NCBI GenBank assembly: GCA_045539475.1
Contig: JAZQFJ010000091.1
Span: 28,003 to 92,002, forward strand
From: Eubacteriales bacterium
Lineage (GTDB): Bacteria > Bacillota > Clostridia > Oscillospirales > JAAYXM01
Direction of reading: 5' to 3'
DNA length: 64,000 nt
In this document: piece after piece, positions 7,750 through 54,620 of the stretch
How the letters are laid out: each line of letters starts with the position of its first letter
Numbering within the stretch: the first letter of the stretch is position 1
Position numbers and translations under genes: made by a program
The notes under the pieces: generated by a model
What the model was told of the DNA's origin: nothing
Database searches by the model: none
Seen by the model: the letters and a program-made list of their open reading frames with translations, nothing else

Positions 7750-7790
7750 ATAACCGTGAGCCAAAAAGTAATAATTTAATATGTTGCTTA

Positions 7791-7819
7791 TTGATAAATA
7801 AGAGCCAATGTGATATAAT
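7791..7819 (+). promoter_or_regulatory. candidate promoter embedded in the oxidoreductase terminator
   Basis: TTGATA (7791-7796), 17-nt spacer ending in TGA, TATAAT (7814-7819). Confidence 0.45.
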
Positions 7820-7845
7820 ACAATTCGTTGCATTGGCTCTTTTCT
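7801..7845 (+). terminator. intrinsic terminator of the oxidoreductase gene
   Basis: AGAGCCAATG (7801-7810) pairs with CATTGGCTCT (7831-7840), then TTTTCTC. Confidence 0.7.
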
Positions 7846-8391
7846 CTATGTGAGAGGAGCTAACAATATGGGTAAAGGCCACAATGGACAGATATGTTCA
7901 TGTGACAGATGACTCGTTGTTAAAAGCAGAGTAACAGTTTGAAAGCAATACACTTTCATAGTGTTAAAAAAATGGCGAAAAAATGGCGAAGTAAATACAT
8001 AGTAAATGCTCAAAACCCTTGAAAATAAAGGAGATGTAGACAAATATGAAATTAGGTATAGTAAGATAACGAGTATTTTTATAACTCAATGTAAAGCACA
8101 TAAAAGTGCATAGAACCCTTGTGCTACAAGGATTTTTTGAAAATCAATTTTATAAAACATCATATAACTCCATAAAGGTTTATAAAAAAATGGTGTAAAA
8201 ATGGTGTAGTAAAAAATAATGATTTAAAGAAAAAGACCATTTGCAACGTTTAATTAAATAACTTGATGAATCCGATTTTGCACTTGGAGCAAAGTCGGAT
8301 TTTTAATTCATAATAACTTTTAGAAACAAAATTAGATATTTTGATTTGCGCGATTAAAATGAAAATAAGACTTGGTTTATTTTGATTTAGC

Positions 8392-8420
8392 TTGACAAGT
8401 TGAAATAAATTTATTAAAAT
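8392..8420 (+). promoter_or_regulatory. candidate promoter of the fic gene
   Basis: TTGACA (8392-8397), 17-nt spacer, TAAAAT (8415-8420). Confidence 0.5.
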
Positions 8421-17119: not shown

Positions 17120-17515
17120 GTGATTGAATTGGAAGAAAGAGAATATAACAACATTTATGCAATACCGGCAAACTATACCGATTCCGGTAAACTATTTGGC
17201 GGAATGCTTGAGCCGAGAAATGCCGTCGAAACAGTTATCGTCATACTTCTTATCGGATATCCTGAGCTTATGCTTATTCCTATGCCCGGCACTATCAGAA
17301 TTGTTGTAATGACGATAACGCTGATTCCATTGGCAGTTATTGCGATGATGGGCATTGACGGTGATTCTCTGTTTCAGTATACGGGACACATATTCCGCTA
17401 CTTCCTCAATCGCAGAACATTGCATTTCAGAAGGGTGGGATATAAATATGAGCAAAGCCAACTCAAAAAAAGAAAGAAAACCGACAAAGTCAAGGAAAAA
17501 GCCGGAAAAGCTTGA
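17120..17515 (+). CDS. small two-TM T4SS protein (VirB3/PrgI-like by position and topology)
   Basis: 131 aa with two hydrophobic helices, located directly before and overlapping the VirB4 gene. Confidence 0.45.
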   Translation: MIELEEREYNNIYAIPANYTDSGKLFGGMLEPRNAVETVIVILLIGYPELMLIPMPGTIRIVVMTITLIPLAVIAMMGIDGDSLFQYTGHIFRYFLNRRTLHFRRVGYKYEQSQLKKRKKTDKVKEKAGKA

Positions 17516-26402: not shown

Positions 26403-26588
26403 ATGAAAAGAGATGTCTCTGGGCAGAAATGTCCCTCGTGTGAAACGGGAAGGCAAATGCTTTTTCTTGATCCGCGAGAGCTTTTCTGCCCGTATATTAG
26501 TAATCACAGAGGACATTCATGCGCAATGTATGTCCCGATACAAGCCAATTCAATTTCTGAAATTTACAAGGAGGAATTTGTCAAATGA
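26403..26588 (+). CDS. small Cys-rich (zinc-ribbon-like) protein
   Basis: 61 aa with CPSC...C..., RBS AAAGGAG upstream, and a stop that overlaps the start of the giant gene (ATGA). Confidence 0.45.
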   Translation: MKRDVSGQKCPSCETGRQMLFLDPRELFCPYISNHRGHSCAMYVPIQANSISEIYKEEFVK

Positions 26589-29500: not shown

Positions 29501-31948
29501 AGCAATAATATTGTAGTGGATCTCCCCGAAGGCATAAAGCCATCTGTTGAAGCTCCCGTAATTGTAACTGTTGAGGATCAGTATGGTAATCCGCAGAAGA
29601 ATGTTACCATCATTGCACTCGGCGACAATGATTATATAGAAAAAGGCAAAACCGACATCTATGGCCGTGTCACACTCCCGATGGTAAACGAAGGTTTTAC
29701 AAATGATGAAGGGCACGTAACTGTCGATAACATCAATGTTATTGTCAACGACGAAATCGGTCTGATAGCAGATGCGTTTGTTAAACACAACGAGGATGGA
29801 ACCGTTTCGGTTACGCTTCCTGAAGGAAAAGGCATCAGCCATTCAAATCGCATTACGGTAACAGTACTCGACTCTGAAGCTCTGGCAGTTAAAGATAAGT
29901 CAATTACTGTAACTGATCTTGAAGAAAAGACTTATACCGACATAACGGATGAATCCGGCAAAATCGTTGTCCCGCCGCTTTCGGAAGATTACTCGGATGA
30001 AACCGGTATGGCAGTTGTAAATGGATACACTGTGTTTATCGCCGACGAAATAAATCCGATTGTTGATGCCTTTATTGAAATTGAGAACGGTGCTATCAGT
30101 ATCGCGCTTCCTGAAGGTGCAAATATTGATTATAACAACCGTATCACGGCGACCGTTACAAAGGATGACGAGCCTGTCAAGGATATCCCTGTTAGCTTTA
30201 CCGATACAACAGGTAAGACCGAAATCAATCTGACAGACGAGAATGGTAAGGCAGTTGTCCCGCCTGCAAACATTGATTTCACTGATGTGAATGGATTTGC
30301 GCAGGTTGACGGATATTCCGTAACAGTTAACGATGAAAAGGGCTTTGTGGAAAAGGCGTTTATAACTCACACGGAAGACGATAAGCTTGATATAAAGCTT
30401 CCGGATAATCTCTTGATCGAGTACGGCAACAGAATAACCGTGCAGGTGCTTGATAAAGAAACGCAGGCGCCGGTGAAAGACCTCGTGGTCATTGTAAACG
30501 AAGTCATTGTTCCGACAGAGTCCGGCGAAGAAACACCTGTGGGCAAGACTATGACGGATACCACTGATTCCAAGGGTATCGCGGTATTCCCACCGCTTTC
30601 TGAAGACATCACTGACAACGAAGGTGGTTCCAACGTAACCGACAAGACCGAAGAAGAGGACAAGGATACTGACGGAGACGGAACTCCCGACACTCCGGGT
30701 GAAACGATCGAACAACAGTATATCGTATCGGTAAAGGATACCAAGGGTATCATCCCTGATGCGTTCGTGAAAATCAGTAACGGCAAGATCAGTGTTACAT
30801 TACCTGAAGGAAAGACTTTGACAACAAGTAATCAGACAACAGTCACGGTTCTTGATAAAGAGTCAAAGCCGATATCGGGTGTAAGCGTTACAATCACTGA
30901 CAGCAGCAACACCTCCAAATCCGGCACCACCAATGCAAACGGTCAGGTGACACTTCCCGTCAAGTCCTCCGGTGGAGGTGGCGGTGGCGGCGGTAGCAGC
31001 TCCTCTGGCGGAGGTGGTGGCTACTACAGTGGCGGCGGAATCGGAGGCTCATACTCATCTACAACCGTGAATGTTGTCGATAAGGACGGCAAGACCGTAT
31101 CTGTTTCCAAGTCCACAACCACGACCCAAGCTACACTCACACTTCCTGCAGGCAAAAATCTGCTCAAGGATGATAACTATTATAAAATTACGGTAACTTC
31201 TGGTTCTCAGGCAAAACCTGGTTATACTGTTGTACTGAAAGACAGAAGCGGTAACGAAGTAAGCGGAGTCACGGATGCTTCCGGTAAGCTAACGCTCCCG
31301 GGTGTTAAGCATACAGCATATATCTTCGGATATCCGGATGGAACCTTCAGACCGAATGGTAACATGAGAAGAAGCGAAGCTGCGGCAATCTTTGCGCGTC
31401 TTATTGCGGAAGCGAAGAATGAAAGTATTAGCGGCAGAGCTTCTTTCAAGGACGTTGATTCTGATGAGTGGTATGCATCTTATGTTGCATATCTTGAAAA
31501 ATATGACGTAATACGCGGATACTCCGATAATACATTCCGCGCAGACAACCAGGTCACACGCGCGGAGTTTGTCGCTATGAGCGTCCGATACTACGATTTA
31601 TTCGGCGATTTACCATCTGTTTCAAACACCAATAGATACAGTGATGTGTCTTCAAGCTACTGGGCGGTTAAAGAAATCTCCGTCGCAAAAGAAATAGGTT
31701 GGCTCAACGGATATGCTGACGGCACATTCCGCGGTGATAACAAAATTACGCGCGCAGAAGCCGTGACCGTAATTAACCATGCAACGGAACGTAATCCTGA
31801 TAAAGAGCATATCAACGAAAACTTCACCAAGCTCAACAGATTTACGGATATAACCGATAGCAGCGCATGGTTTTTCTATAATGTGATGGAGTCTTGTAAC
31901 ACACATCTCGGCGCGGCATCAAGCGACGGCGAGAACTGGATAGACTAA
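26585..31948 (+). CDS. 1787-aa secreted surface protein: Cys/His mini-domain repeats, Ig-like repeats, Gly linker, three C-terminal SLH domains
   Basis: Signal peptide MKTKSKLRSFLSALLALAMLLSSFPMITYA. About 13 repeats of H.Y..(5-7)..TC...GY....C..C...Y, then ~95-aa repeats with TDE.GK.VVPP. SLH motifs: FGYPDGTFRPNGNMRRSEAA, IRGYSDNTFRADNQVTRAEF, LNGYADGTFRGDNKITRAEA. Confidence 0.85.
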   Translation: MKTKSKLRSFLSALLALAMLLSSFPMITYAAQSNEYVDPADMWLSSNNRTNELDVNSTTTYETQYCAICDKETTVLTYRVPEYTRSGETALNRDVRYSDGTKIDGRGQGNLDSGTPGVDAYFTGYHWTKVVCQNCGTINSGSNQQSYGFNNNVYSLHSCDNNFFLQFDNTTHEHYNEEYHLTTLKRGEYCKFCKGTYARATQGLQEHSFVENIDGQVGNNRFYIAEICSDCGYETSEYVTAKSVVTSYYGVEDGEAHTLAVSDLSDSGVRTSIRYGTSADNCTKTSAPNYTQAGYYTVYYEIDYSYAGEVMTENGVSYVWLVAEDEDSNGTIVVLPQTHEHEFHYLETIKPSCDELGYDRFQCNGCGQLEKRNYTPSLGHDYDDIVIREATCKQGGLVLTLCADCGDFYQTTTATGAHSYKSVNHTPTCRNVGYTEYTCEVCGDNYINNIQPLISHSYERITKEPTCIDRGYTTSTCTMCGYNYVDDYVDELGHSWDEGHTVTASTCTGEGIMEYNCQNTGCTEKMIQAMDAAGHTPGDEATCTEPQKCIECETVLELPKGHAYDSEVTAPTCTAMGYTTNSCISCGDTYLSDYVDPTPHEYEETVIPATCTSLGYSVFRCADCDDEYKADYTDMLEHTYVEDVTAPTCTSLGYSTFTCSGCDASYVGNYVDKTPHNYNKEVIPPTCVEHGHSVYECPDCGASYIDEIVESTEHTYEETKIPATCTSLGYSIFKCTDCDDEYVSNYVDKLPHDYEATVIPATCTGLGHSEYQCKNCPDNYKSDYTEPTGHNPSDWIIDTPATIEHAGAKHIECLTCGIALQESEIPQLIDVDRSDEDGEALVGAYSIILTDSKNIPVFDSEITIDVNDNVTIRLPEKRLLDYKDQTTITVFNTETQEAVTGLRIFVYDAANNAATGATDANGQLKVPNNQSSTGDDNGTIGKDENEEKLTFVVRVSDKENVVIPDCDVYIGESNNIVVDLPEGIKPSVEAPVIVTVEDQYGNPQKNVTIIALGDNDYIEKGKTDIYGRVTLPMVNEGFTNDEGHVTVDNINVIVNDEIGLIADAFVKHNEDGTVSVTLPEGKGISHSNRITVTVLDSEALAVKDKSITVTDLEEKTYTDITDESGKIVVPPLSEDYSDETGMAVVNGYTVFIADEINPIVDAFIEIENGAISIALPEGANIDYNNRITATVTKDDEPVKDIPVSFTDTTGKTEINLTDENGKAVVPPANIDFTDVNGFAQVDGYSVTVNDEKGFVEKAFITHTEDDKLDIKLPDNLLIEYGNRITVQVLDKETQAPVKDLVVIVNEVIVPTESGEETPVGKTMTDTTDSKGIAVFPPLSEDITDNEGGSNVTDKTEEEDKDTDGDGTPDTPGETIEQQYIVSVKDTKGIIPDAFVKISNGKISVTLPEGKTLTTSNQTTVTVLDKESKPISGVSVTITDSSNTSKSGTTNANGQVTLPVKSSGGGGGGGGSSSSGGGGGYYSGGGIGGSYSSTTVNVVDKDGKTVSVSKSTTTTQATLTLPAGKNLLKDDNYYKITVTSGSQAKPGYTVVLKDRSGNEVSGVTDASGKLTLPGVKHTAYIFGYPDGTFRPNGNMRRSEAAAIFARLIAEAKNESISGRASFKDVDSDEWYASYVAYLEKYDVIRGYSDNTFRADNQVTRAEFVAMSVRYYDLFGDLPSVSNTNRYSDVSSSYWAVKEISVAKEIGWLNGYADGTFRGDNKITRAEAVTVINHATERNPDKEHINENFTKLNRFTDITDSSAWFFYNVMESCNTHLGAASSDGENWID

Positions 31949-32644: not shown

Positions 32645-32895
32645 TGACAGGAGCTTGCATCCAGGCTCTCGGTACATCGGACGAATTCCCGGTGTTAGAC
32701 TTGTTGATGATTGATACAAGGAACCGTTACGGATTTAGCGCACAGAGCGATCCATAATGATGCAAGCCAAATTGAATATGGGGCCGGAGGGCTGCTTAAT
32801 ACTTTACAGAGTCAATCGTCGGGATGAGACAACAAAATTCCCGACACGTTGGCTCTGTATTGCCATTTTTGCAGACTTTCCGGCCTTTTTCTTTA
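32645..32895 (+). ncRNA. ~250-nt structured 5' leader (two multi-stem domains, the second closed by a terminator-like stem plus U-run)
   Basis: Pairings read by eye: GCTTGCATC 32653-61 with GATGCAAGC 32759-67; GGCCGGA 32782-88 with TCCGGCC 32879-85, then TTTTT; CAGAGTC 32807-13 with GGCTCTG 32851-57; GTCGGGA 32818-24 with TCCCGAC 32839-45. Confidence 0.5.
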
Positions 32896-32913
32896 CAATC
32901 GGAGGTGACTTTA

Positions 32914-33384
32914 ATGAGTAAAAAGACTAAAAAAAGAAAGGGATTGAACAAAGCTCCCATGCGGTGCCCGTATTGCGGCAGCAGTGTGATTCTGCGAAGT
33001 GCTGACGGTATTTATCAGGACAACAGCAGAAATACTATGCTTTATGTATGTTCACACTATCCGGAGTGTGATGCTTACGTAAGAACACATTCCGGGACCA
33101 GGGTTCCGGTCGGTAGTATGGCAAACTCCGAGCTCAGGGCACTGCGCAGGAGCGCTCATCATTATTTCGACCAGCTATATAAGTCCGGGTTCATGTCAAA
33201 GGACGATGCATATTACTGGCTTTCGAGTATTATTGATGCCCCGCTGTCTCAGGCGCATATTGGATACCTGAGCGAATATTACTGTAAGCAGGTCATTGAG
33301 CAGAGTAAAGCATATCTTGAGCAGTGTCGCAGTAAAAGGAAGAAATCCGGGCTATATAAGGCAGGGGGTGCGCTTGCATCATGA
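32914..33384 (+). CDS. zinc-ribbon protein, DUF3268-like
   Basis: ATG 32914 lies 7 nt after GGAGGTG. Motifs CPYCGSS...CSHYPECDAYV, then GSMANSELRALRRSAHHYFDQLY and AHIGYLSEYYCKQVIE, matching my recollection of the DUF3268 pattern. Confidence 0.55.
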   Translation: MSKKTKKRKGLNKAPMRCPYCGSSVILRSADGIYQDNSRNTMLYVCSHYPECDAYVRTHSGTRVPVGSMANSELRALRRSAHHYFDQLYKSGFMSKDDAYYWLSSIIDAPLSQAHIGYLSEYYCKQVIEQSKAYLEQCRSKRKKSGLYKAGGALAS

Positions 33385-33926
33385 AACTCACTCTGCAGCA
33401 ACAAAAATTAGTCGAAGATAATCTCGGTTTGGTAGGCAAAGTAATTCAGCAAAAGGTCCGCGGCTTACATAACATTCCTCATTATACATATGACGACCTG
33501 TTCCAGATCGGTTGTATCGGGCTCAGCAAAGCTGCAGCGACGGATAAGGGTGGGACATTTTCGACATATGCATACAGACTGATCTGGAATGAAATATGCG
33601 ACACTCTCGTGTATGCATCAAAAAAGTATTCAAGGGAGGATGCGTATGAGGATGTTGGACTTGTTTTCAAGGAAGAGACTAAAGATTTTGGCGATACAGC
33701 AAAGATAGAGCTATATGATGTTATATCGGAGGCGAAGCGTAATGTTTCGCCATCGGTTGCACTTGGCATTGATGCTTTGCTCCTTATGAACGATGGATAT
33801 ACCGCTAAAGACATCGGCTCTTTATTCGGTAAGACAACAAATACGATAACGGCACTTATATCTAAGGCAAAAAAGCATCTTCGCTCTATTCCCGAGCTTC
33901 GGGCTCTTAACCGCGAATCGGTATGA
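33381..33926 (+). CDS. sigma-70 family RNA polymerase sigma factor (small, group 4-like)
   Basis: Region 2-like DDLFQIGCIGLSKAA...FSTYAYRLIWNEI and region 4 HTH YTAKDIGSLFGKTTNTITALISKAKKHL. ATGA overlap with the upstream gene. Confidence 0.8.
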   Translation: MKLTLQQQKLVEDNLGLVGKVIQQKVRGLHNIPHYTYDDLFQIGCIGLSKAAATDKGGTFSTYAYRLIWNEICDTLVYASKKYSREDAYEDVGLVFKEETKDFGDTAKIELYDVISEAKRNVSPSVALGIDALLLMNDGYTAKDIGSLFGKTTNTITALISKAKKHLRSIPELRALNRESV

Positions 33927-34297
33927 AGAAAAAACTGTTTATTATCCCGGTACTATTCTTTGTGTTGGTAATGGTTTTGTTCCGCTGTGTTATTTACATC
34001 GGATATGTTCCGTCAGGATCAATGGAGCCGACTATCCCGGCAGGAAGTAAGGTGATAGGTATTCGAATAATCCCGGAGCTTGAGAAAGGTGATATTATTG
34101 TTTTCGGGTATGGAGATACATATATGATCAAGCGCATTGCCGCGAGCCCCGGGGACAAAGTAGGAGGAGGTATTGTACCGGAAGATTGCTATTACGTTCT
34201 TGGTGACAATTCAGCAAATTCCTATGATTCGAGATACTGGGAGAATCCATTTGTGCATCGCAGCAGAATCAAGGCGATAATTATTTGCAAGGTATAA
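33923..34297 (+). CDS. signal peptidase I (S26 family, short form)
   Basis: Catalytic Ser box SGSMEPT, Lys box MIKRIAASPGD, box E LGDNSANSYDSRYW. ATGA overlap with the sigma gene. Confidence 0.85.
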   Translation: MKKKLFIIPVLFFVLVMVLFRCVIYIGYVPSGSMEPTIPAGSKVIGIRIIPELEKGDIIVFGYGDTYMIKRIAASPGDKVGGGIVPEDCYYVLGDNSANSYDSRYWENPFVHRSRIKAIIICKV

Positions 34298-34905: not shown

Positions 34906-36036
34906 ATGAGAGAAAGAATCCTGTCGCTTATTATTGTGTGTCTGTTTATATTAAGCTTGCCAATTACAGCTTTTGCCCATAGCGGCAGAACGGATGGCAG
35001 AGGCGGACATAAAGATAATAAGAACAAAAGCGGACTCGGACGTTATCACTACCACTGCGGCGGATATCCTCCGCATCTACACACAAGCGGTGTATGTCCA
35101 TACAGAGGCGGAGCCGGCTCGTCAAGCAAGCGTTCATCTTACTCAAGCACTCCGAAACCGGTGTACGCGACAAGAATCAATGCAGTTAATATTCCGGGTA
35201 GCATAAATGCAGGAGAATCTGCAACACTTAAAGCAGCTGTATATCCGTCAAATGCAGAAGATAAGACTGTATATTGGGAAAGCTCAAACCCGAGCGTGTT
35301 ATCAGTGAGCTTGACGGGGGAATTAACCGCTGTTGGCGTTGGGACAGCAACAATCACTGCAAAGACATCGAGAGGAACATCAAAGAAATTCAATATCATG
35401 GTAAAGGAAGTATTTGCAGATAGCATCAACATTTCTGATAACAAAGATGAAATTCTGCTCGGGGATAGCGAATATCTGAAATGCGTGTTTATGCCACAAA
35501 ACACCACTAATAAAGCGGTGCAATGGGCCTCATCTGATGAAAATGTGCTTTCTGTGTCTGCTGACGGCAGAATAATTGGTAAAGGTGTAGGTGTTGCAAC
35601 TGTTACAGCAACACATAAGGAGCTGACAGATACCTTGGTAATTGAGGTAAAGCCCATTGATGCTAAAAGCGTTGAGTTTATATTGCCTGATGATATTGAA
35701 AGAAACGAGGCTCAGACACCAAGAATAAAGAAGAACAGTACATTACAGATTCAAGCTATAATCGAACCTGAGAACACTACATATAAGGAGATTGAATGGA
35801 GTGTAAGTGATGAAACTGTTGCTTCCATAGATGAAAGCGGATTGCTTACTGCTTATGAAACGGGAACGGTTGTGATTACCGCAACAGCAGTAAGTGGTGT
35901 GTCAGAAGAAATTGAGATAGAGATATATTCTGATATAGGATATGCTGTTGCGGGTGTCGGAGGCGCTGTTGCAATTGCTGCAGGTGGAGCTGCCTGGTAT
36001 TACAGAAAGAAGAAAAAGGAAGAAGAAGCTGAATAA
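34906..36036 (+). CDS. secreted YHYH-domain protein with three Big_2 (Ig-like) domains and a C-terminal TM anchor
   Basis: Signal peptide, HSGRTDGRGGHKD...YHYHCGGYPPHLH, Big_2-like LTAVGVGTATITAKT / IIGKGVGVATVTATH / LTAYETGTVVITATA, and C-terminal AVAGVGGAVAIAAGGAAWYYRKKKK. Confidence 0.75.
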   Translation: MRERILSLIIVCLFILSLPITAFAHSGRTDGRGGHKDNKNKSGLGRYHYHCGGYPPHLHTSGVCPYRGGAGSSSKRSSYSSTPKPVYATRINAVNIPGSINAGESATLKAAVYPSNAEDKTVYWESSNPSVLSVSLTGELTAVGVGTATITAKTSRGTSKKFNIMVKEVFADSINISDNKDEILLGDSEYLKCVFMPQNTTNKAVQWASSDENVLSVSADGRIIGKGVGVATVTATHKELTDTLVIEVKPIDAKSVEFILPDDIERNEAQTPRIKKNSTLQIQAIIEPENTTYKEIEWSVSDETVASIDESGLLTAYETGTVVITATAVSGVSEEIEIEIYSDIGYAVAGVGGAVAIAAGGAAWYYRKKKKEEEAE

Positions 36037-36111: not shown

Positions 36112-36726
36112 CTATATTTCAGAAAATGCCAACCATTGCACTGTATAGGTGTCATATGAAAATCTGCATCCGGCGCTGTTTTCAACCCAGTCGCATTTGA
36201 TACTGTACCATCCGCGAAGTTTTGATCGCAGGTGTGAATCCGTTGAAATCGGTTCAACCCATACTCTGTCATATTCTCGAAGCTCGAAACTTTCAAGGGG
36301 CTGTGTTTTTGGAACTGCACCTTCTGAATATTCCGGAGCTTTGTAATATATCTCTTTCGCTTCCTCAAACGGCACAACGACATTGTCCGGAGCTAAAAGC
36401 AGCATGCTTATAGAATCAACAATCATCCAGCCGTATTCGGTTGACCATACCGGTTGTCCGTGCATGATACGAAGGTTTGTCTGAGGTATCTGAATATCTG
36501 ATTTTTCACTTCCGTTTAGCCGAACACTGCCATTTGTTGTGTTACCAAGCAGGAAATCTGTTGAAACCTTATATAACTCAGCCATTTTGAGAACACTGTC
36601 AATGGTCGGAGATTTTCTTCCGGCTTCCCATGAACTGAGCGTTGGTTGAGAAACGCCAAGCTTTTCCGCTGCCTCAAGCAACTTCAGTTTACACATCTTT
36701 CTTGCTGTTTTGAATTGTCTTGGCAT
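36112..36726 (-). CDS. XRE-family HTH regulator with an uncharacterised ~130-aa C-terminal domain (repressor candidate)
   Basis: N-terminal KLKLLEAAEKLGVSQPTLSSWEAGRKSPTIDSVLKMAELYKVSTDFLLG. Confidence 0.75.
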   Translation of the reverse strand: MPRQFKTARKMCKLKLLEAAEKLGVSQPTLSSWEAGRKSPTIDSVLKMAELYKVSTDFLLGNTTNGSVRLNGSEKSDIQIPQTNLRIMHGQPVWSTEYGWMIVDSISMLLLAPDNVVVPFEEAKEIYYKAPEYSEGAVPKTQPLESFELREYDRVWVEPISTDSHLRSKLRGWYSIKCDWVENSAGCRFSYDTYTVQWLAFSEI

Positions 36727-36798
36727 ATTATCACCGCCTGAATCGGATATAGAGATGTTTTAACGCGGTCAAAAGTCATCATTCTTGTCGGTGTTTTA

Positions 36799-36960
36799 TT
36801 ATCCCCGGCAATTTAAGCTCATTTCCCGTTTACGTTCTTCATATTCGGAAATTTCGCTCTCGTTTGCAGATCGGATATTAAATTTACCGCAATCGGGGCA
36901 TTGTTCTGGTTCACTTGTTCTTTCAAAAAGAAACCGACAGTTATCACATGCATATATCAT
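36799..36960 (-). CDS. 53-aa zinc-ribbon (rubredoxin-like) protein, not in the ORF track
   Basis: My translation: MIYACDNCRFLFERTSEPEQCPDCGKFNIRSANESEISEYEERKREMSLNCRG. CxxC...CxxC, with an AGGGTGA RBS upstream. Confidence 0.45.
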   Translation of the reverse strand: MIYACDNCRFLFERTSEPEQCPDCGKFNIRSANESEISEYEERKREMSLNCRG

Positions 36961-36979
36961 CTTTAGTCACCCTGCAAAG

Positions 36980-37150
36980 TTATTTTAGAATAATCCATTT
37001 GACATTTTTTCTATCACCGTCATTATCTATAATCTCAGCTTTTTGCAATTTAGTCAAATATCGCTGCACTGATCGTAATGGAATTGGCAATGCATCAGAT
37101 ATTTCTCTTGATGAAGCAGTAGGATTTTTTGAGATAAATTTAAGAATCAT
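36980..37150 (-). CDS. 56-aa winged-helix DNA-binding protein, not in the ORF track
   Basis: My translation: MILKFISKNPTASSREISDALPIPLRSVQRYLTKLQKAEIIDNDGDRKNVKWIILK. The RBS is weak. Confidence 0.4.
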   Translation of the reverse strand: MILKFISKNPTASSREISDALPIPLRSVQRYLTKLQKAEIIDNDGDRKNVKWIILK

Positions 37151-37261
37151 TTCTTTGTTCGCGCCAATGTTCGCGCCATGTATTGTGCTGCTGCCGACAT
37201 CGCCGACATCTCTTATATTAAGAAAAAGTGTGATTCTGTCGGGTTACGGAAGTTAAGTCAA

Positions 37262-37471
37262 TCATTTCGAATTCTCCTTGCAATTGGATTTTATATATTT
37301 ACCGCTCTTTATCCGAGCATCAGCAGGTTTTTGAGCAGTTATAGGTATCATCCATGTGTTACCGATTTTCTGAGAATCAGCGATTCGACCTTCGGCGCAC
37401 AGAATTGCAACCCTTCTGTTTGAAAGTCCCCACTTGGCAGCGGCTTCTGTAGTAGAAATGAATTTCACCAT
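37262..37471 (-). CDS. excisionase-type / MerR-like small HTH DNA-binding protein
   Basis: MVKFISTTEAAAKWGLSNRRVAILCAEGRIADSQKIGNTWMIP is the HTH_17 pattern. ATG 37471 lies 5 nt after GGAG (the track uses GTG 37477). Confidence 0.65.
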   Translation of the reverse strand: MVKFISTTEAAAKWGLSNRRVAILCAEGRIADSQKIGNTWMIPITAQKPADARIKSGKYIKSNCKENSK

Positions 37472-37500
37472 ACTCACTCCAGTCAGATATCATATAATAT

Positions 37501-37529
37501 ATTATATTCGCTTTGCTGAATAATATCAA
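37501..37529 (-). promoter_or_regulatory. candidate promoter of the minus-strand Xis-like operon
   Basis: On the minus strand: TTGATA, 17-nt spacer, TATAAT (plus-strand coordinates 37524-37529 and 37501-37506). Confidence 0.5.
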
Positions 37530-37617
37530 GTTGTTTCGTATTAATTTCTTTGGATTGTTGTAAATTTCAAATCATATCCGTGTAATTATATTGAAAACAT
37601 GAAAGGAGGTTTTCAGT

Positions 37618-38229: not shown

Positions 38230-38362
38230 TTGCATTATCGGGTAATGTTTGATATAATATAAATATAAGTTTCACAGTTACCCTATAAGGTAATTACAGT
38301 TTTCTTTGTCTGCAAAGTGTCTGAAGGTCTTGTACCATCAGGCACTTTTTTATTTTCTTATG
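38230..38362 (+). ncRNA. promoter + ~95-nt structured leader/small RNA + intrinsic terminator, repeat family copy 1 of 3
   Basis: TTGCAT 38230-35, 17-nt spacer, TATAAT 38253-58, ATAAGTTTCA, hairpin GTTACC/GGTAAT, then terminator AGTGTCTGA...TCAGGCACT followed by TTTTTTATTTTC. Confidence 0.6.
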
Positions 38363-38450
38363 CTTCTTTGTCAAGAAGCACATAACTGCACAGAGCGCAG
38401 GAGCGTTCCTCCGCGTTTGTGTCGTATATACTCAAGGGTGAAAACTCAAA

Positions 38451-38490
38451 AGAACTCAGAGAATGAAGATATTCTTTGAGTTCTTTTTTT
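38451..38490 (+). terminator. strong intrinsic terminator downstream of copy 1
   Basis: AGAACTCAGAGAAT (38451-64) pairs with ATTCTTTGAGTTCT (38471-84), 14 bp with one G-U, then TTTTTT. Confidence 0.8.
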
Positions 38491-38595
38491 ATATAAACAA
38501 GTGCCTTCAAGGCTCTGTTCAGGTATATTCCGGGGAGTCTTAAGGCTTACCCGCAATATAAATATTTTTCTATATAAGGAGGTAGGTGCTTATGA

Positions 38596-43881: not shown

Positions 43882-44330
43882 TGTTTCTTAAAGAGCTTTA
43901 TCGGGACTTACCGTATATACTGAAGAAGAAAATAGTAATTCATGCTGCAATTGCATTGTTGGCAATGATTTTGTTGTTTGTAATAAGCTTTTGTTTTTCG
44001 GATATTATACTGATGCTCCCCTGTTTGTTTTTGAGCGGTCTGATGATAGTGAAAGCTGCGTTTTTGTTTTACAATTGCATTGCCGGTAACTACATTGAGA
44101 TTACCGGCATATGCTCCGATGTGGAAAAAACGACTATCAGGAAGAAGGTTAAGTATGTAATCCTGAGAGCAGAAGATAAAAAGTTAAAGCTCAATACTCA
44201 TTACAACTTGAAAAATATATGTGTCGGAGATGCTTTGACAGTGTATATATCAAAAAAGGCGTCGCTATATTATAAGGACGGAATGTATATTGCCAATGAG
44301 TTTTACGGAGTTGTCGTTAATGATGATTAA
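43881..44330 (+). CDS. hypothetical membrane protein
   Basis: TAATG overlap with the previous gene; two hydrophobic helices followed by a soluble C-terminal domain. Confidence 0.5.
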   Translation: MFLKELYRDLPYILKKKIVIHAAIALLAMILLFVISFCFSDIILMLPCLFLSGLMIVKAAFLFYNCIAGNYIEITGICSDVEKTTIRKKVKYVILRAEDKKLKLNTHYNLKNICVGDALTVYISKKASLYYKDGMYIANEFYGVVVNDD

Positions 44331-44342
44331 TTGATTAATGAA

Positions 44343-44470
44343 TTGACTATTTTTACTTGATATGATATAATAAAAATATAAGTTTCAAGGTTTCAGTAAG
44401 AGAAATCACAGTTATCCAAGTTTACAAAGTGTCAATGAGCACATTCGTGCTTTTTGGCACTTTTTTATTT
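44343..44470 (+). ncRNA. promoter + structured leader/small RNA + terminator, repeat family copy 2 of 3
   Basis: TTGACT 44343-48, 17-nt spacer, TATAAT 44366-71, ATAAGTTTCA, hairpin GGTTTC/GAAATC, terminator AGTGTCAA...TTGGCACT followed by TTTTTTATTTTC. Confidence 0.6.
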
Positions 44471-44546
44471 TCTTGATTTCTGCCCGGCTACGGGTTGAAA
44501 TAAATATATTTTTTTAGCAGGTAACCCCTGCAGAAAGGAGTTTTCC

Positions 44547-45041
44547 ATGTTGAAAGTATTCTCAACAAATGTCGTTGTATCGAAAGGTTTCAACGGCGCC
44601 CCGGCACTCAAATTTTTCAAGGACGACAACACCAATACCAGGAGCGTCAGATTCCGTATTGGTAAGAAGGTCTATGACTCGCGTGCCGAAAACAATGCCC
44701 GATGGCTTAATTACAGCGTCAAGGCTTTTAATGGCTTGTGCGACCGCATCGAGAAGATGAATATTGAAGAAGGTGCGTACTTGAACATTTCAGGCAGACT
44801 TGACGAAGAGACGTGGACGGATCAGAACAGCGGAGAGACGAAGATGGCAGTGGTCATCATCCTTGATGAGATAGAATATGCCGGCGTCGCGAAACCAAAG
44901 GAAGGTTCAGCTAACGTCCAGACAGCCAAAGCAAACGCTTCAGCAGCTCCTGAAGCACCCGCGCAGAACCCCACAGACTCCGATAATTTTACCGGTTTCC
45001 AGAATTTCGGCGGCAGTGGCGGAATGTTCGATGAAGAATAG
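44547..45041 (+). CDS. ssb: single-stranded DNA-binding protein
   Basis: OB-fold N-terminal ~110 aa, a Gly/Pro/Ala-rich linker, and the acidic C-terminal tip GGMFDEE. Confidence 0.8.
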   Translation: MLKVFSTNVVVSKGFNGAPALKFFKDDNTNTRSVRFRIGKKVYDSRAENNARWLNYSVKAFNGLCDRIEKMNIEEGAYLNISGRLDEETWTDQNSGETKMAVVIILDEIEYAGVAKPKEGSANVQTAKANASAAPEAPAQNPTDSDNFTGFQNFGGSGGMFDEE

Positions 45042-45518: not shown

Positions 45519-46258
45519 AAGTACCCGTAGGGAAGGGCACTATTGTAAGAGAGACTTTGCTCATCATAATAGCATTGATGCTGTTTGTGTTTATGTGCAG
45601 GCTGTGGCCGATACTGCTCTTTATGATTGTCGCTTTGTTTGTTGCAATGATTATTCTGCTATTTAAAGCATCGTCAGAGCCGAAAACGGTTGAGCCGAAG
45701 CCCATACCGTCAACAGTAAGACAACCGGTACGGATACCTTCGCAAAATGATGTATACGCACTTGCGTATTCTGTCATACTCAGACGGATTACCGAGCTTG
45801 TCCATGAAAAATATCCTCAGGCGCGTTGGATTTGGGAAGCGTCAAATGCACGCAACCTTATAGAAAACGGGGAAGATGTATACATTCTCTTGAATCGTGC
45901 CGGAGGATATGGCAGGGCTATGGTTAAAATAGTCAACCTGAGTGTCGTGGATGTCGTGTTTGGTGTTCCGGAAATTGACACATTCCCCGATGCTGCGGAT
46001 ACAGACGCTGAAGACGCGGATGAGGGTGTGCCGGAAAACTATGAGCTGATAGCCTTTGAATGGGTTCAGGCACACATTATTGATCTGAACAACAGATGCA
46101 ATGAAGCTATCGGTGAAGGCAAAAATATGGTCATCATTACGGAGGCTGAGCTTCCTGTACGGGAGAGTTGGATTGATGTATGTAAACAGCTTCAGAAGTC
46201 CGAAATCGAAAACCTTGAATGTATTCCGGAGGGAATACAGATTAATCTCACGCATTGA
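45515..46258 (+). CDS. hypothetical membrane protein
   Basis: ATGA overlap with the previous gene; N-terminal TM pair LLIIIALMLFVFMCRLWPILLFMIVALFVAMIILLF. Confidence 0.5.
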   Translation: MKVPVGKGTIVRETLLIIIALMLFVFMCRLWPILLFMIVALFVAMIILLFKASSEPKTVEPKPIPSTVRQPVRIPSQNDVYALAYSVILRRITELVHEKYPQARWIWEASNARNLIENGEDVYILLNRAGGYGRAMVKIVNLSVVDVVFGVPEIDTFPDAADTDAEDADEGVPENYELIAFEWVQAHIIDLNNRCNEAIGEGKNMVIITEAELPVRESWIDVCKQLQKSEIENLECIPEGIQINLTH

Positions 46259-46278
46259 AATGCAGAAAGGAATTTACA

Positions 46279-48153
46279 ATGAGTAATGTCACTAATCTTT
46301 TTAATTTCGGTCGCGCTCTGCCACATCCATTTGATAGCGTGACAAATAAGAAAGTCAAGGTATCGTCAAAGTATGGAGACGGAACCACATCAACATTGTG
46401 TTCGACGGTTATAAAAGCCGTGAATGCCGCTTGTGCTTGCATGAACGGTACAGGACAGGGTGCGTTTGGAACGCTTGACAGCAAGGGTATTGCTGAATAT
46501 AAGTCATCAAACAGCGCTGATGAATATCATTTGGTTGTGTATGACAGCACGGTAGGAAATCTTCTCGCTTGCGTATATGATAAAAGCACGGAAGTGATTG
46601 AAACATATACAGCTCATTCCTCTGCAAGAGACGGCGCTGCTATTGTTATGGCCATGCTCCCGGCTCTTATGGTGGATGATGAGTTCAAGGAGAATTTTGA
46701 TACATATTATGATCAGTTTCTTGCAGGATTTCTGGATATGGCTGTTACCACGGAGGCGATGGCATATATGTGTGACAACGCATATCGCCGCATCAAGGAC
46801 GATGGCTGTGCAGCGCATGTCCCTGTAGAGATTGACAAATCGGGTAATATCATGCACGTGTCGAGAAGTCATATTGACTCAGGTAATTTTACTCCGCATG
46901 CAGTTATTGGCGGAGAGTTTACTATTTTCGGTTCCACCGGACCTGCAACGATCAAAAAAGCCAGTACCTTCATTGAGCACAGTGACTTTGTAAGAAAATA
47001 CCCATTGAATTCATCAAGAGCACTTACCCCCGAAGAAGAGCTGATGGTGCCCGAGCTTCCTGAATGGTATATCATACCTCCGGAGGTCGTAGACATTTGC
47101 AAGCACGCACAGCACACCACAGGAAAGTCAATGCAGATGCGAAACTTTCTTTTACGTGGTCCTGCCGGTACAGGTAAGACAATGGGAGCAAAGGCTGTTG
47201 CAGCAGGACTCGGGCTTCCGTATAAGAAGTATACCTGCTCTGCTGGAACGGAAATATATGATTTTATCGGTCAGATCTTTCCGGATGCCGAAGGAGGCTC
47301 AACAGGAGATATACAGCTTGACCGTGAACGGCAACAGCTAAAGAGCATGGGTGGAATCAACTATACAAACGTTGCGAAGCTTATGAACCTGCCCGATCTG
47401 GACGATATGGATTACGATCCCCAAGGCGTGTATAAAGCGCTCACAGGGAAGGATAAGCCAAACGCATCCACTCAGGACTGTATGCTTATCGTGCTCAATA
47501 AAGTGACAGATAAGATAAAAGAGCTTTCCAGACGCGATGAAGCAAGTGCGTCACAAGGGCAGAGTTTCACTTATGTCGAAACCGATTTTCTGACAGCGCT
47601 CAAGAACGGATATGTTGTTGAGGTGCAAGAACCCACCACAATTATGCAACCGGGTGTATTGGTCGGACTCAACTCATTGCTTGAGCAGACCGGATCCATC
47701 ACGCTCCCGACCGGTGAGGTTATCGAACGCCATCCTGATGCTGTGGTTATCGTTACTACTAATATAAGCTATGAAGGCTGCCGCGGTATGAACCAGTCTG
47801 TCATTGACAGAATGAGTCTGGTGTGCGATGTCGAGGCTCCGGCACCTGAAGTAATGGTCCAGAGAGCGATGAGTGTCACCGGCGCAACTGATGAATACCA
47901 AGTAAGCCAAATGGTTCAGGTGGTAAACGATATTGCGGAATACTGCAGAACTCATGGCGTTACCGATGGTTCCTACGGCATGAGAAGCCTGATCGACTGG
48001 ATTGAAAGCAGTGCGATCACGAACAATGTCTATGAATCGGCATTATACACCATTATAAGCAAAGCCACTACGGACGAACTGGAACGTGAGGCTTTGATAA
48101 CATCAGTGCTTGAGCCTATTTTTGCTCCACCGAGGAAAAGAGCTTCAGCATAA
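46279..48153 (+). CDS. AAA+ ATPase (MoxR / CbbQ / CobS-like, AAA_5) with a ~290-aa unknown N-terminal domain
   Basis: Walker A LLRGPAGTGKTM and Walker B-like GYVVEVQEP, plus ITLPTGEVIERHPDAVVIVTTN. ATG 46279 follows AAAGGAA. Confidence 0.75.
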   Translation: MSNVTNLFNFGRALPHPFDSVTNKKVKVSSKYGDGTTSTLCSTVIKAVNAACACMNGTGQGAFGTLDSKGIAEYKSSNSADEYHLVVYDSTVGNLLACVYDKSTEVIETYTAHSSARDGAAIVMAMLPALMVDDEFKENFDTYYDQFLAGFLDMAVTTEAMAYMCDNAYRRIKDDGCAAHVPVEIDKSGNIMHVSRSHIDSGNFTPHAVIGGEFTIFGSTGPATIKKASTFIEHSDFVRKYPLNSSRALTPEEELMVPELPEWYIIPPEVVDICKHAQHTTGKSMQMRNFLLRGPAGTGKTMGAKAVAAGLGLPYKKYTCSAGTEIYDFIGQIFPDAEGGSTGDIQLDRERQQLKSMGGINYTNVAKLMNLPDLDDMDYDPQGVYKALTGKDKPNASTQDCMLIVLNKVTDKIKELSRRDEASASQGQSFTYVETDFLTALKNGYVVEVQEPTTIMQPGVLVGLNSLLEQTGSITLPTGEVIERHPDAVVIVTTNISYEGCRGMNQSVIDRMSLVCDVEAPAPEVMVQRAMSVTGATDEYQVSQMVQVVNDIAEYCRTHGVTDGSYGMRSLIDWIESSAITNNVYESALYTIISKATTDELEREALITSVLEPIFAPPRKRASA

Positions 48154-48180
48154 CTATTATGAGAGGAGGTTAACCCTGTA

Positions 48181-50481
48181 ATGGCAAGGGTGAATCACAA
48201 ATTAGTCAAAGAGCGCTTGAACGAAAAGCGCAGTAAAATAACTGATCGCCAGTTCTTCACATCACGACTGCTCGCAGGTCACTTTGAAGACATGGCGGCT
48301 GCACAGACACGGCGGTATAAATATAACCGCCGTGTCCACGTCAATCTTGTATGGGAACCTGACAGCAATATGATGGCGATGACGAACAACAGAGTTATTC
48401 TCATCAATTGCGGTAATAAGTTCATTACCAAGGTCAGAGGGCGCGAGAACCGCTATCAGATAGTGTGCGGGTTCTTTGCTCACGAGCTTGGACATGTTCT
48501 TTATACAGACTTTCTTGCAGGTCAGACTCATATCAATTTACTTGGACAAGGCAAATGGTTTCCTGAAAAGCCGATTTTAAAGACGAATGCAGATATACGA
48601 AACGAAGCCGCGCTTTGGGATTATGCAAATGATTCCGAAGAAAATATGCAGGCAGTACAGTATATAGCCTCTGAAATCAGCAATGTCATTGAGGATGGAT
48701 ACATAGAGGATCGTATGCTGCTGAATTTTCCCGGCAGACTGAAATACGGTCTGGAAAGCTTGAGAGATATTCATTTTGAGCAGATGCCAACCGTTACTCA
48801 ACTTATTGAAGAAGAGGACGATGGTAAAAGACATTTGTTTGAAAGTATCTTGCAAAATATTCTGTCTTATGTCAAGTTCGGTGAGATAAAATACGGAGAT
48901 GAGCCGCTTAATGATGTGCGCATTAAAACTGTTTTTGATCTCATTCTTGATATAGACAGTGCCCTGATAAGCAATTCAGCCAAAGACAGAATACGGATAA
49001 CCAATTATATCCTTGTCCACTGCTGGGAGTATCTTTCGGATTATCTGGAGGAATGTAAGAAACGGCATCAGGAAGCAGTCGCTTCCGGTGCGGCTGGTAC
49101 AATTTCGGAAACACTTGCAGGAATGCTCGGCTCAATTACCGGCGGATCCTTGACAGGTACAGGTGACGGAACTCCCGTTGCGCAGTCTTCCGGTGGTCCG
49201 GTCAATACGGTAACAGCGATAAGGCGTGCAAAAACCAAAGCCGATGCCGGGAAGGCTGATGAAGAGAAAGCCGAAGATGCGACTGGAAACGGGTCCGGTG
49301 ATGATAATAATGCTTCTCAGACCGGAACGGAAAATGAAAATGCTCTGTCTGGGTCTGGAGATGATGACGGTACCGATCCGGTCGAAGAGGGTTTGAACCC
49401 CATTGACGACGGTGGGAACAGAGGCGGAAAGCAAGAGGTGTCTGAGTCTGAGGGCGGACGAATTCCGTATCATCAGACCAACACACTGTATGCACCTGAA
49501 GGCGGAACGACTGAATATGACAATGATTATCAGCGTGAAAAGTATGACAGAGCCGCTACGGACATTGAAAGGATACTTGATAAAATGGCAGAAAAGGCCG
49601 CTTGTACTGAGCTTGAGAACGCCAGAATCAAGGAACTGCGTGATGTGGCTCAAAACATCTCATACGGAGATATTCACAGCGGTGTCAACGTCCGTATAAA
49701 TCGCATAAACAGTGTGGATGAGGAGCTTGTAGAGCAATTTAATGATATTGCAGCACCGCTGCTTGCCATATCCAAACAGTTGACACGCAGTGTTATTCGT
49801 CAGTTCGATGATTATAGACGCGGTGGTAAACAAACAGGGCTTATGATGGGACGAAGGCTTGAAGTGAGAGCTTTATGCAGAAACGATGGCAAGGTCTTTT
49901 CAAAGAACGCCCTTCCTAATGAAATTCCGCAATTGTCGGTGGGGCTCCTACTTGATGAATCAGGTTCTATGGGATGCGATGACCGTTGTACATATGCAAG
50001 AGCCGCAGCTATTATCCTGCATGATTTTTGTGAAAGTCTGGATATCCCGGTTATGGTCTACGGTCATTCAACCAGCGGCAGTGATGTCTGTTTATATTCA
50101 TATGCCGAGTTTGAAGGCTTTGATAATAACGACAAATACCGTCTGATGGATATTCACGCCAGAGGCAGTAACCGCGACGGTGCGGCGCTCAGGTTTGTTG
50201 CGGAGCAATTGTCCAAGAGAACTGAGGATGTTAGAATCCTCATACTGGTTTCAGACGGACAACCTGCGCATTCAGGATACAGCGGAACCGCAGCCGAGGA
50301 AGACCTGCGCGGTATCAAGCAGGAATACCAGAGAAAAGGCATCTTGTTCATTGCTGCAGCCATTGGGGATGATAAGGTGAATATTGAAAGGATATACGGC
50401 AATTCATTTTTGGATATAACCGACCTTTCCCAGCTCCCCGTTAAGCTGACATCTATAATCAGAAAACACTTAAGATTTTAA
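48181..50481 (+). CDS. von Willebrand factor A (CobT-like) protein with an N-terminal HExxH motif and an acidic low-complexity centre
   Basis: MIDAS LLLDESGSM and ILVSDGQPA; N-terminal FFAHELGHVLYTDF; central stretch DEEKAEDATGNGSGDDNNASQTGTENE. Confidence 0.75.
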   Translation: MARVNHKLVKERLNEKRSKITDRQFFTSRLLAGHFEDMAAAQTRRYKYNRRVHVNLVWEPDSNMMAMTNNRVILINCGNKFITKVRGRENRYQIVCGFFAHELGHVLYTDFLAGQTHINLLGQGKWFPEKPILKTNADIRNEAALWDYANDSEENMQAVQYIASEISNVIEDGYIEDRMLLNFPGRLKYGLESLRDIHFEQMPTVTQLIEEEDDGKRHLFESILQNILSYVKFGEIKYGDEPLNDVRIKTVFDLILDIDSALISNSAKDRIRITNYILVHCWEYLSDYLEECKKRHQEAVASGAAGTISETLAGMLGSITGGSLTGTGDGTPVAQSSGGPVNTVTAIRRAKTKADAGKADEEKAEDATGNGSGDDNNASQTGTENENALSGSGDDDGTDPVEEGLNPIDDGGNRGGKQEVSESEGGRIPYHQTNTLYAPEGGTTEYDNDYQREKYDRAATDIERILDKMAEKAACTELENARIKELRDVAQNISYGDIHSGVNVRINRINSVDEELVEQFNDIAAPLLAISKQLTRSVIRQFDDYRRGGKQTGLMMGRRLEVRALCRNDGKVFSKNALPNEIPQLSVGLLLDESGSMGCDDRCTYARAAAIILHDFCESLDIPVMVYGHSTSGSDVCLYSYAEFEGFDNNDKYRLMDIHARGSNRDGAALRFVAEQLSKRTEDVRILILVSDGQPAHSGYSGTAAEEDLRGIKQEYQRKGILFIAAAIGDDKVNIERIYGNSFLDITDLSQLPVKLTSIIRKHLRF

Positions 50482-54394: not shown

Positions 54395-54516
54395 TTGACT
54401 ATAATGAGGTTTTCTGATATAATAAATATATAAGTTTCAAGGTTTCCATAGAGAAATCACAGTTATCAGAGTTTACGAAGTGTCGTTTGCGCCATGCGCA
54501 GATGGCACTTTTTTGT
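54395..54516 (+). ncRNA. promoter + structured leader/small RNA + terminator, repeat family copy 3 of 3
   Basis: TTGACT 54395-400, 17-nt spacer, TATAAT 54418-23, ATAAGTTTCA, hairpin GGTTTC/GAAATC, terminator AGTGTC..TGCGC CAT GCGCA..GGCACT followed by TTTTTTGTTTTC. Confidence 0.6.
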
Positions 54517-54620
54517 TTTCTCGCCCAATATTTTGGACACAAGCCGACATCACCTTCGGGTTATGTTGGCTTTTGTTATATATTATCAAAGGCGAAAGCC
54601 TCAAAGAAAGGAGCATTTCT

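Follow-up and report, generated by a model that had tools for sequence, protein, structure and literature searches.

The stretch of DNA analysed here, 64,000 nt of contig JAZQFJ010000091.1 (Eubacteriales bacterium, assembly GCA_045539475.1) and hereafter the window, is a conjugative element of a Clostridia-type host, probably integrated, in which an ssb-like gene is preceded by a compact cassette at 44343–44470 on the plus strand. This cassette joins a near-consensus sigma-A-type promoter to a structured RNA leader and a strong intrinsic terminator, and belongs to a large family; it is about 130 bp long with a G+C content of 29–34%, the leader itself taking up some 50 nt (Table 1). A preliminary description of the locus had proposed this anatomy, and every element is found where it was placed; the same holds for the ssb start codon, an ATG at 44547 lying 77 nt past 44470, for the two short hairpins (CCCG/CGGG and GCAGG/CCTGC) and ribosome-binding site (AGAAAGGAG) that separate gene from cassette, and for the identical architecture of a second occurrence further upstream, here called copy 1, the cassette before ssb being copy 2.

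Table 1. Coordinates of the cassettes, their parts and associated features in the window.
Feature	Position	Strand	Basis or remark
Copy 1	38230–38355	+	90 bits; heads 157-aa ORF and NAD-dependent ligase operon
Second strong terminator-like hairpin, copy-1 5' untranslated region	38448–38494	+	18-bp stem, then U7
Copy 2, -35 hexamer TTGACT	44343–44348	+	promoter scan; 11/12 matches over both hexamers, with 17-nt spacer
Copy 2, extended -10 TGATATAAT	44363–44371	+	sequence and promoter scan; TGnTATAAT essentially invariant across the family
Copy 2, R1, single-stranded AGUUUCA	44381–44387	+	about +4 of the predicted RNA (start site inferred)
Copy 2, P1 hairpin GGUUUC/GAAAUC	44389–44407	+	single-sequence folding and covariation
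Copy 2, R2 (ACAGUU) and R3 (AAGUUUAC), single-stranded conserved motifs	44408–44425	+	alignments A3, A4, A6
Copy 2, intrinsic terminator	44426–44466	+	hairpin 44426–44463; U-tract (U6) 44461–44466; upper stem variable, covarying
Copy 2, R4 AAGUGUC	44427–44433	+	invariant terminator base; paired with GGCACUU
H3, small hairpin CCCG/CGGG	44483–44494	+	sequence; ssb-type 5' untranslated region only
Conserved UUGAAAUAAAUA, ssb-type 5' untranslated region	44495–44506	+	nearly invariant in 38 distinct ssb leaders
H4, hairpin GCAGG/CCUGC	44517–44531	+	position conserved; abuts ribosome-binding site
Ribosome-binding site AGAAAGGAG	44532–44540	+	
ssb-like gene, 164 aa	44547–45041	+	Pfam SSB, E 4.5e-6; PHROG 44
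Copy 3	54395–54518	+	102 bits; heads 379-aa ORF, YqaJ exonuclease, RecD2-like helicase
Second terminator-like hairpin, copy-3 5' untranslated region	54541–54577	+	AAGCCGACA/UGUUGGCUU, then UUUUGUU
S1-repeat protein, 476 aa	24490–25920	+	acidic low-complexity N-terminal half, S1 repeats in C-terminal half; directly behind coupling protein

The promoter of copy 2 is predicted to be of the sigma-70/sigma-A type, with the arrangement TTGACT-17-TATAAT and a TG at -15/-14. The terminator, likewise predicted from its sequence, consists of an outer stem AAAGUGUCAA/UUGGCACUUU around GAGCAC/GUGCUU, the two stems together contributing 16 pairs, followed by U6. The resulting 93-nt RNA has a minimum free energy of -24.8 kcal/mol (z = -5.25), a stability that no shuffled sequence out of 200 matched. 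A short terminated RNA had been expected in the preliminary description, and a species of about 90 nt is indeed the predicted default product; as that description also required, no separate ssb promoter appears downstream of 44470, the cassette being the only one recognisable in a sequence scan. The leader contains no ribosome-binding site or short open reading frame (ORF) that would encode a leader peptide, and ORFs starting within the terminators were dismissed as spurious extensions.

The window holds exactly three cassettes, all on the plus strand. Strings of 19–25 nt shared among them occur three times each against 0.00–0.04 occurrences expected in shuffled sequence, and a covariance model built from relatives returns only these three matches, at 105, 102 and 90 bits, whether or not filters are applied. 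The copy absent from the preliminary description, copy 3, completes a consistent picture in which every cassette (3/3) heads an operon of DNA-handling genes: beside the ligase operon of copy 1, copy 2 heads ssb, an AAA_5 ATPase and a CobT/VWA protein, and the exonuclease and helicase genes of copy 3 are followed further downstream by primase-like and ParM-like genes. The earlier notion of a repeated leader for ssb stands as far as linkage is concerned, with 79 of 80 homologues so equipped, but not as regards specificity, since the cassette also heads the ligase and the recombinase/exonuclease/helicase operons. The genes behind ssb, an AAA_5 (MoxR-like) ATPase and the CobT/VWA protein (46255–50481, plus strand), form a pair that is syntenic with the cassette in 30–39 related loci.

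The same arrangement recurs far outside this element. Three IMG/VR loci reached through SSB homologues of about 50% identity carry the cassette before ssb in all three cases. A first pattern scan of IMG/VR (R1...ACAGTT) gave 69 matches, all attributable to chance; a pattern built from conserved strings retrieved six IMG/VR loci and at least 117 loci in GTDB genomes. Among the GTDB matches listed, the real ones come nearly all from gut Clostridia (Lachnospiraceae, Ruminococcaceae, Acutalibacteraceae and relatives), a few of the carriers are cultured strains, among them Blautia schinkii DSM 10518, Bengtsoniella intestinalis BP47G and Lachnospiraceae isolates from the mouse gut, and carrier contigs often bear several copies; the contexts, among the matches listed, are conjugative elements of Clostridia only. 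In total, genomes of gut Clostridia and metagenomes yielded at least 122 distinct cassette sequences, and the family-wide anatomy given below refers to 122 of these. No family in Rfam 15 matches the cassette at or above its gathering threshold, and the best hit of a permissive Rfam scan of 44330–44560 (rimP leader, 22 bits against a threshold of 47 bits) is noise. INPHARED and PLSDB contain no close relatives, the sole trace being one unannotated faecal contig. The cassette is thus a widespread structured RNA leader without a match in Rfam 15, and none like it was found in the literature searched. In two members (L199:1677–1784 and L240:1954–2056) leader and terminator are normal and no promoter is recognisable at the usual distance; these may be decayed copies, or leaders used within an operon.

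Since sequences selected by a pattern are bound to agree in some columns, an unbiased set was assembled independently of the pattern from 80 metagenome loci fetched by the SSB protein profile alone (47–70% identity). The covariance model, built after an alignment of 73 sequences (A3), detects a cassette in 79 of these 80 loci, in 79 of 79 cases on the ssb strand, at a distance from the ssb ATG of about 75–80 nt in most loci and about 120–200 nt in a few. The gene immediately downstream is ssb in 79 of the 80 metagenome loci and in 33 of 113 cassettes from the stored loci and the window, and the family as a whole falls into three orthologous types (ssb, ligase and recombinase), each with its own downstream 5' untranslated region (5'UTR).

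This linkage bears directly on one alternative, namely that each cassette is an independent gene for a trans-acting small RNA (sRNA) of about 90 nt made in abundance, the element having three paralogues of it, and that the operons behind live on leakage or on some other transcription route. A near-consensus promoter and a terminator predicted to be efficient would produce just such a discrete RNA, in which the conserved single-stranded motifs could provide a seed or a binding site for protein; chaperone-bound sRNAs typically have a conserved terminator base and U-tail, and the double terminators described below would insulate an sRNA from the operon behind it. What renders this explanation unlikely is that orientation and distance to the downstream gene are fixed, with the co-directionality with ssb just noted (79/79) and each type keeping its own orthologous operon, and that neither the promoter scan nor inspection of the sequence of the three copies reveals another sigma-A-like promoter between terminator and downstream gene. 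Moreover, no antisense partner or complementary target of the leader RNA was found in the window. Antisense promoters read from the reverse complement of R1 or R4 were also considered, and discarded for lack of a usable -10 at the right distance.

Conservation within the cassette is concentrated in the promoter hexamers and in the transcribed part. The promoter consensus is gATTGACtat, a 17-nt spacer and TGnTATAAT; the spacer and the DNA upstream of the -35 carry no information across the 122 cassettes and differ among the three copies of the window, and the possibility of a conserved operator around the promoter was accordingly abandoned. Downstream, R1 reads AGU(U/A)UCA, begins 8–10 nt past the -10 hexamer in most members, and is nearly invariant in the SSB-fetched set. 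It is followed by P1, a 6–7-bp hairpin whose sequence and loop vary freely, then by R2, A(C/U)AGU(U/A), and R3, (A/G)AGUUU(A/U)C, and finally by R4, A(A/C)AGUGUC, which forms the 5' arm of the terminator base opposite GGCACUU. The AGU triplets of R2, R3 and R4 are spaced 8–10 nt apart, and that of R1 falls into register once P1 is folded out; the whole of R1–R4 spans 41–50 nt, varying with the length of P1. Family terminators have a mean free energy of -17.9 kcal/mol, stems of 11–17 bp and at least 7 U within the 9 nt after GGCAC, the tail usually continuing with (G/A)UUU(U)C.

That these elements form a structure in the RNA is seen from their covariation. In an alignment of 86 distinct sequences made with the covariance model (A4), 96.4% of cells are paired, as against 77.0% in column shuffles and 38–49% with slid partners, the covariation score of 0.53 (0.17 in shuffles) was reached by none of 500 shuffles, and double changes occur at all six P1 pairs and at six upper terminator pairs. 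The unbiased set (A6) gives 96.1% paired cells against 88.7% in shuffles and a covariation score of 0.34 against 0.19, with five of the six P1 pairs covarying. Among its 44 sequences AGUGUC is invariant, GGCAC is retained in 41 and the U-G pair of the base in 42, so that conservation of the terminator base extends beyond its pairing to the sequence itself. As G-U pairs are retained, the structure belongs to the RNA of the plus strand, and the invariance of the terminator base while its top varies argues for sequence-specific recognition and not for pairing alone.

These results also speak to the proposal that the motifs act on DNA, with R1–R4 serving, immediately behind the start site, as direct-repeat operators of an element repressor and so giving zygotic induction in recipients, as for Reg576/EGeRS2 of plasmid p576, and the hairpins being secondary. 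The repeat period of about 8–10 bp, the presence in the element of a leftward regulator operon (HTH_3, HTH_17 and winged-helix genes, 36112–37477), the position of one related cassette (L237) 135 nt from a divergent HTH_3 gene and the precedent of p576, in which a strong promoter with operators is repeated before establishment operons (PMC8708921), would all suit such operators. Yet P1 covaries and G-U pairs are kept, pointing to selection on the RNA strand, the variable span of R1–R4 (41–50 nt, by P1 length) abolishes helical phasing, the dual motif of p576, TTATCCCnnTTATCCC, is missing from the cassettes, and the terminator is left unexplained, so that we consider operators on DNA highly improbable.

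How the leader might act is suggested by its relation to the terminator or terminators behind it. When the leader was folded without the 3' arm of the terminator, no conserved helix competing for R4 was seen, whereby an alternative antiterminator helix was rejected and termination would be the default (OFF) state, predicted to yield the RNA of about 90 nt and to leave the operon silent. In addition, the ligase- and recombinase-type leaders contain a second, unrelated terminator (Table 1). Related ligase-type leaders have an equivalent second hairpin, followed by UUUUUUAUAUA, within a 5'UTR of about 250 nt that includes several further conserved hairpins, and the second hairpin of the recombinase type is conserved in 17 related leaders, with both-sided changes at five of nine pairs. 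A device that melted the first hairpin only could thus not express the ligase and recombinase operons, and read-through, where it occurs, is probably processive, as it is for N/nut, put and LoaP.

Taken together, these features suggest, with about an even chance in our estimation, that the cassette is a cis-acting, factor-dependent and probably processive antitermination gate for three DNA-processing/establishment operons of the conjugative element. The strong sigma-A-type promoter would be fired by the host enzyme, and RNA polymerase would transcribe the leader of some 50 nt with R1, the P1 hairpin, R2 and R3, and by default stop at the built-in intrinsic terminator, releasing the RNA of about 90 nt. 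A trans-acting factor encoded by the element or by the host would, when available, recognise the AGU motifs and the invariant terminator base on the nascent RNA and render the polymerase termination-resistant, allowing it to pass the built-in terminator as well as the next one and to express the gated operon, be it that of the ligase, that of ssb with the AAA/VWA genes, or that of the recombinase, exonuclease and helicase.

A simpler device, a constitutive attenuator or insulator without any sensor, would end the upstream operon and let a fixed small fraction of transcripts pass, the motifs contributing to RNA stability or termination efficiency. Each cassette does come after the stop codon that closes the operon before it, no further terminator intervening, the EGeRS1 regions of pLS20 likewise block read-through into establishment operons (PMC8708921), and no factor was identified in the window. 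A generic insulator, however, needs neither four invariant unpaired motifs, nor a covarying P1, nor a sequence-invariant base with a fixed G-U pair, and behind two strong terminators in tandem, genes that are conserved and presumably needed would hardly be expressed at all. This makes a sensorless element improbable.

Several observations weigh against an antitermination gate. No antiterminator protein was found, a Pfam search of about 70 ORFs in the window revealing no NusG/KOW, Q, N, ANTAR, CAT/RBD, HutP or TRAP domains. The sole recognisable RNA-binding protein is the S1-repeat protein of the transfer-gene cluster, for which binding of single-stranded DNA (ssDNA) is equally possible. Between elements the SSBs share only 45–70% identity and yet the motifs do not change, which is unusual for an element-specific factor. 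The ssb-type leader is without a clear second terminator. Finally, a stand-alone sRNA gene would likewise show a strong promoter with a strong terminator behind it. Two neighbouring genes were examined as potential factors and rejected: the 200-aa gene upstream of copy 1, as a Q-like factor, encodes a signal peptide and is not conserved beside other ligase-type cassettes, and the 157-aa first gene behind copy 1, as an N-like factor, is not conserved in a sister subfamily. PDB sequence searches with unidentified neighbour proteins gave no matches, and a scan of IMG/VR for co-occurrence of the S1-repeat protein with the cassette met no relatives.

The constancy of the motifs in spite of SSB divergence would be better accommodated by a host factor or a ligand than by an element-specific protein, and the periodic triplets, for their part, resemble the sites of oligomeric RNA-binding proteins (HutP, TRAP) or of tandem S1/OB domains. 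One form of this idea, a sensor of the riboswitch kind that responds to a small molecule or an ion and whose ligand engages R4 and so opens the terminator base, draws on the invariant unpaired nucleotides found between covarying helices across elements with diverged proteins, an invariance that would suit a universal ligand, and on the fact that no protein factor was found. Against it stand the very small and simple fold (one hairpin and linear repeats), in which no pseudoknot or alternative pairing is detectable, the AGU periodicity, which suggests an oligomeric protein, the fixed place at the extreme 5' end, which is not a riboswitch trait, and the second terminator, which would stay unregulated; we regard such a sensor as very unlikely. 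A broader formulation is that the leader represents a new, compact (about 50 nt) class of antitermination signal that reads a host universal; what it reads might be RNA polymerase or a Nus-type factor, as with put, or else a small molecule, as in a riboswitch. Although this is doubtful as it stands, a host-universal signal would explain why the motifs and the terminator base stay constant from element to element while the proteins differ by half.

By analogy, the functionally closest systems appear to be the lambda PR'-6S-tR' gate and the nut/put-type RNA signals and, among conjugative elements, EGeRS, conAn and canT; the cassette would work like an antitermination leader but joins none of the described families tested. 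In the lambda gate a strong constitutive promoter produces a short terminated transcript, the 6S RNA, until the Q factor makes RNA polymerase termination-resistant, and the placing of promoter and short terminated transcript directly before the regulated operon is shared with the cassette. Q, however, loads at a DNA site that lies within the promoter or adjoins it, and requires a sigma-dependent pause, whereas in the cassette spacer and upstream DNA are not conserved, conservation resides in the structured RNA, and the unit is used three times per element. A Q-type assignment is further disfavoured by the lack of a conserved promoter DNA element and of any Q-family Pfam match among the scanned ORFs.

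In the N/nut system and in HK022 put, a promoter-proximal RNA comprising a single-stranded box and a hairpin lets the polymerase pass several terminators, and put needs no phage protein, an independence that would fit the invariance of the cassette motifs. Unlike either, the cassette includes as part of the conserved unit a terminator with an invariant base; it also differs from put both in its hairpin number and in that terminator, put being composed of two stem-loops with no built-in terminator. It contains no boxA-like string or boxB consensus, its P1 loop is not conserved, and no N-like protein was recognised in the window, small basic proteins being hard to detect.

The HutP and TRAP leaders of Bacillus are bound at regularly spaced triplets, the last of which overlaps the 5' arm of the terminator, and an oligomeric protein decides whether the terminator forms. 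The cassette resembles them in having AGU every 8–10 nt with the last repeat forming the terminator arm, but the triplets differ (UAG with a 4-nt spacer for HutP, G/UAG with a 2–3-nt spacer for TRAP), and HutP and TRAP each control a single terminator, whereas a second one is present in two of the three cassette leader types. Promoters of the Frpo type, known from leading regions, whose -35 and -10 boxes lie within a long imperfect hairpin of the transferred strand, are active on ssDNA; in the cassettes both hexamers are on one strand at normal spacing and no inverted repeat encloses them in all copies. In copy 2 the -35 region does match R4 over 14 nt, but copy 1 lacks this match, and an Frpo-like promoter was rejected.

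Among conjugative elements, EGeRS1 of pLS20 is a GC-rich, multi-hairpin region of 420–750 bp that has no constitutive promoter and blocks read-through, and EGeRS2 of p576 is a strong sigma-A promoter flanked by Reg operators, with TTATCCC dual motifs TTATCCCnnTTATCCC (PMC8708921). Both resemble the cassette as repeated conserved sequences placed directly before several establishment-type operons of a Gram-positive conjugative element, but neither combines promoter, covarying RNA leader and intrinsic terminator within about 130 bp. For EGeRS1 the cassette is too short, too low in G+C (29–34%) and endowed with a consensus promoter; for EGeRS2 the dual motif is absent from the cassettes, its seven loose matches in the window comparing with 5.5 expected. 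The conAn and canT elements share with the proposed gate an RNA-based, cis-acting processive antitermination past terminators in or before element operons, which for the cassette is inferred. In the pLS20 family conAn2 measures 260–600 bp and works with the ConAn1 protein (PMC8191782), for canT of Tn916 about 340–450 nt are needed (PMC11658703), and both occur as one copy before the conjugation operon without a promoter and terminator of their own (PMC8191782, PMC11658703). The cassette has a leader of only about 50 nt, is present in three copies, and precedes DNA-processing operons rather than type IV secretion genes, and so cannot be assigned to conAn2 or canT.

The ssb-type 5'UTR contributes features of its own. 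The SSB signature of the gene is weak, at 27.1 bits against a Pfam cut-off of 26 bits. Both small hairpins upstream of it change on both arms among homologues, H3 appearing for instance as CCUGC/GCAGG, CUCC/GGAG or CCGG/CCGG, and the string between them, UUGAAAUAAAU, is nearly invariant. H4, placed next to the ribosome-binding site, is possibly a translational operator for SSB. The conserved UUGAAAUAAAUA is partly complementary to R1, with no compensatory change seen, and a long-range pairing of R1 with UUGAAAUAAAU, complementary in copy 2, was rejected because it goes uncompensated where R1 is AGUAUCA. Pairing of the 3' arm of P1 with GGUUUCU behind the terminator fared no better, showing no covariation when P1 changes.

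The conjugative setting assumed in the preliminary description is confirmed by type IV secretion genes in the window, namely those of a VirB4/TrsE-like ATPase (17355–19979, Pfam and tblastn) and a type IV coupling protein (22562–24469, T4SS-DNA_transf, E 3e-54), and the ORFs of the window further include an NlpC/P60 hydrolase, a weak TrbL-like match, a 1787-aa SLH/Big surface protein, a Toprim/DUF3854 primase-like protein and a ParM/Alp7A-like actin. PHROGs labels suggest a phage instead, the ATPase at 17355–19979 being called 'terminase large subunit' and the Ig/SLH surface proteins (26585–31948 and 34906–36036) 'tail', and such a reading was overturned by Pfam and tblastn, which identify the VirB4/TrsE-like ATPase, the coupling protein and SLH/Big surface proteins. 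Positions 1–8400 hold chromosomal-looking genes (LarE/LarB/LarC-like at 2692–5335 and an oxidoreductase), and are followed by a drop in G+C to 0.32 at 8–10 kb and by a Fic gene (8454–9587), likely marking the left end of an integrated element; no tRNA gene is present.

Two further loci of the element are of regulatory interest. A full-length DUF3268 RNA (RF02966, 32646–32768, plus strand, 103 bits), the only Rfam 15 match in the window, directly precedes genes at 32824–34297 for a DUF3268 zinc-finger protein, a sigma-70-like factor (regions 2 and 4) and an S26 signal peptidase, and is a second, separate RNA-linked regulatory module. The leftward regulator operon, at 36112–37530 on the minus strand, encodes HTH_17 (71 aa), winged-helix (56 aa), zinc-ribbon (53 aa) and HTH_3 repressor-like (204 aa) proteins, the zinc-ribbon protein having a weak, sub-threshold match to the Spt4/RpoE2 finger, and lies behind a promoter-like TTGATA-17-TATAAT (37529–37501, minus strand).

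Leading-region genes are those next to oriT on the first-transferred side, and are transiently expressed in the recipient; the preliminary description had counted ssb among them and suggested that the leader may time its early expression there. Neither a relaxase nor an oriT could be recognised in the window, and the term 'leading region' is therefore not assignable to the cassette operons. Nor would early expression in a naive recipient follow from an OFF-by-default gate alone, unless its factor were host-encoded or transferred along with the DNA.

To our knowledge, it is only for a few Bacillus plasmids and Tn916 that one knows how Gram-positive conjugative elements time their establishment genes and their genes for DNA processing (ssb, ligase, recombination, anti-restriction), and the cassette offers a candidate control point that is defined, 130 bp in size and easily mutated. 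If it is factor-gated, identification of the factor would bring to light a new antitermination system; a constitutive cassette would be a natural promoter-insulator part for Clostridia. Should the leader prove to be a signal reading a host universal, it would be the master gate of an establishment/DNA-processing regulon in conjugative elements widespread among gut Clostridia. Either way, the cassette is a candidate for a new Rfam RNA family and a marker for the establishment regulon of these elements.

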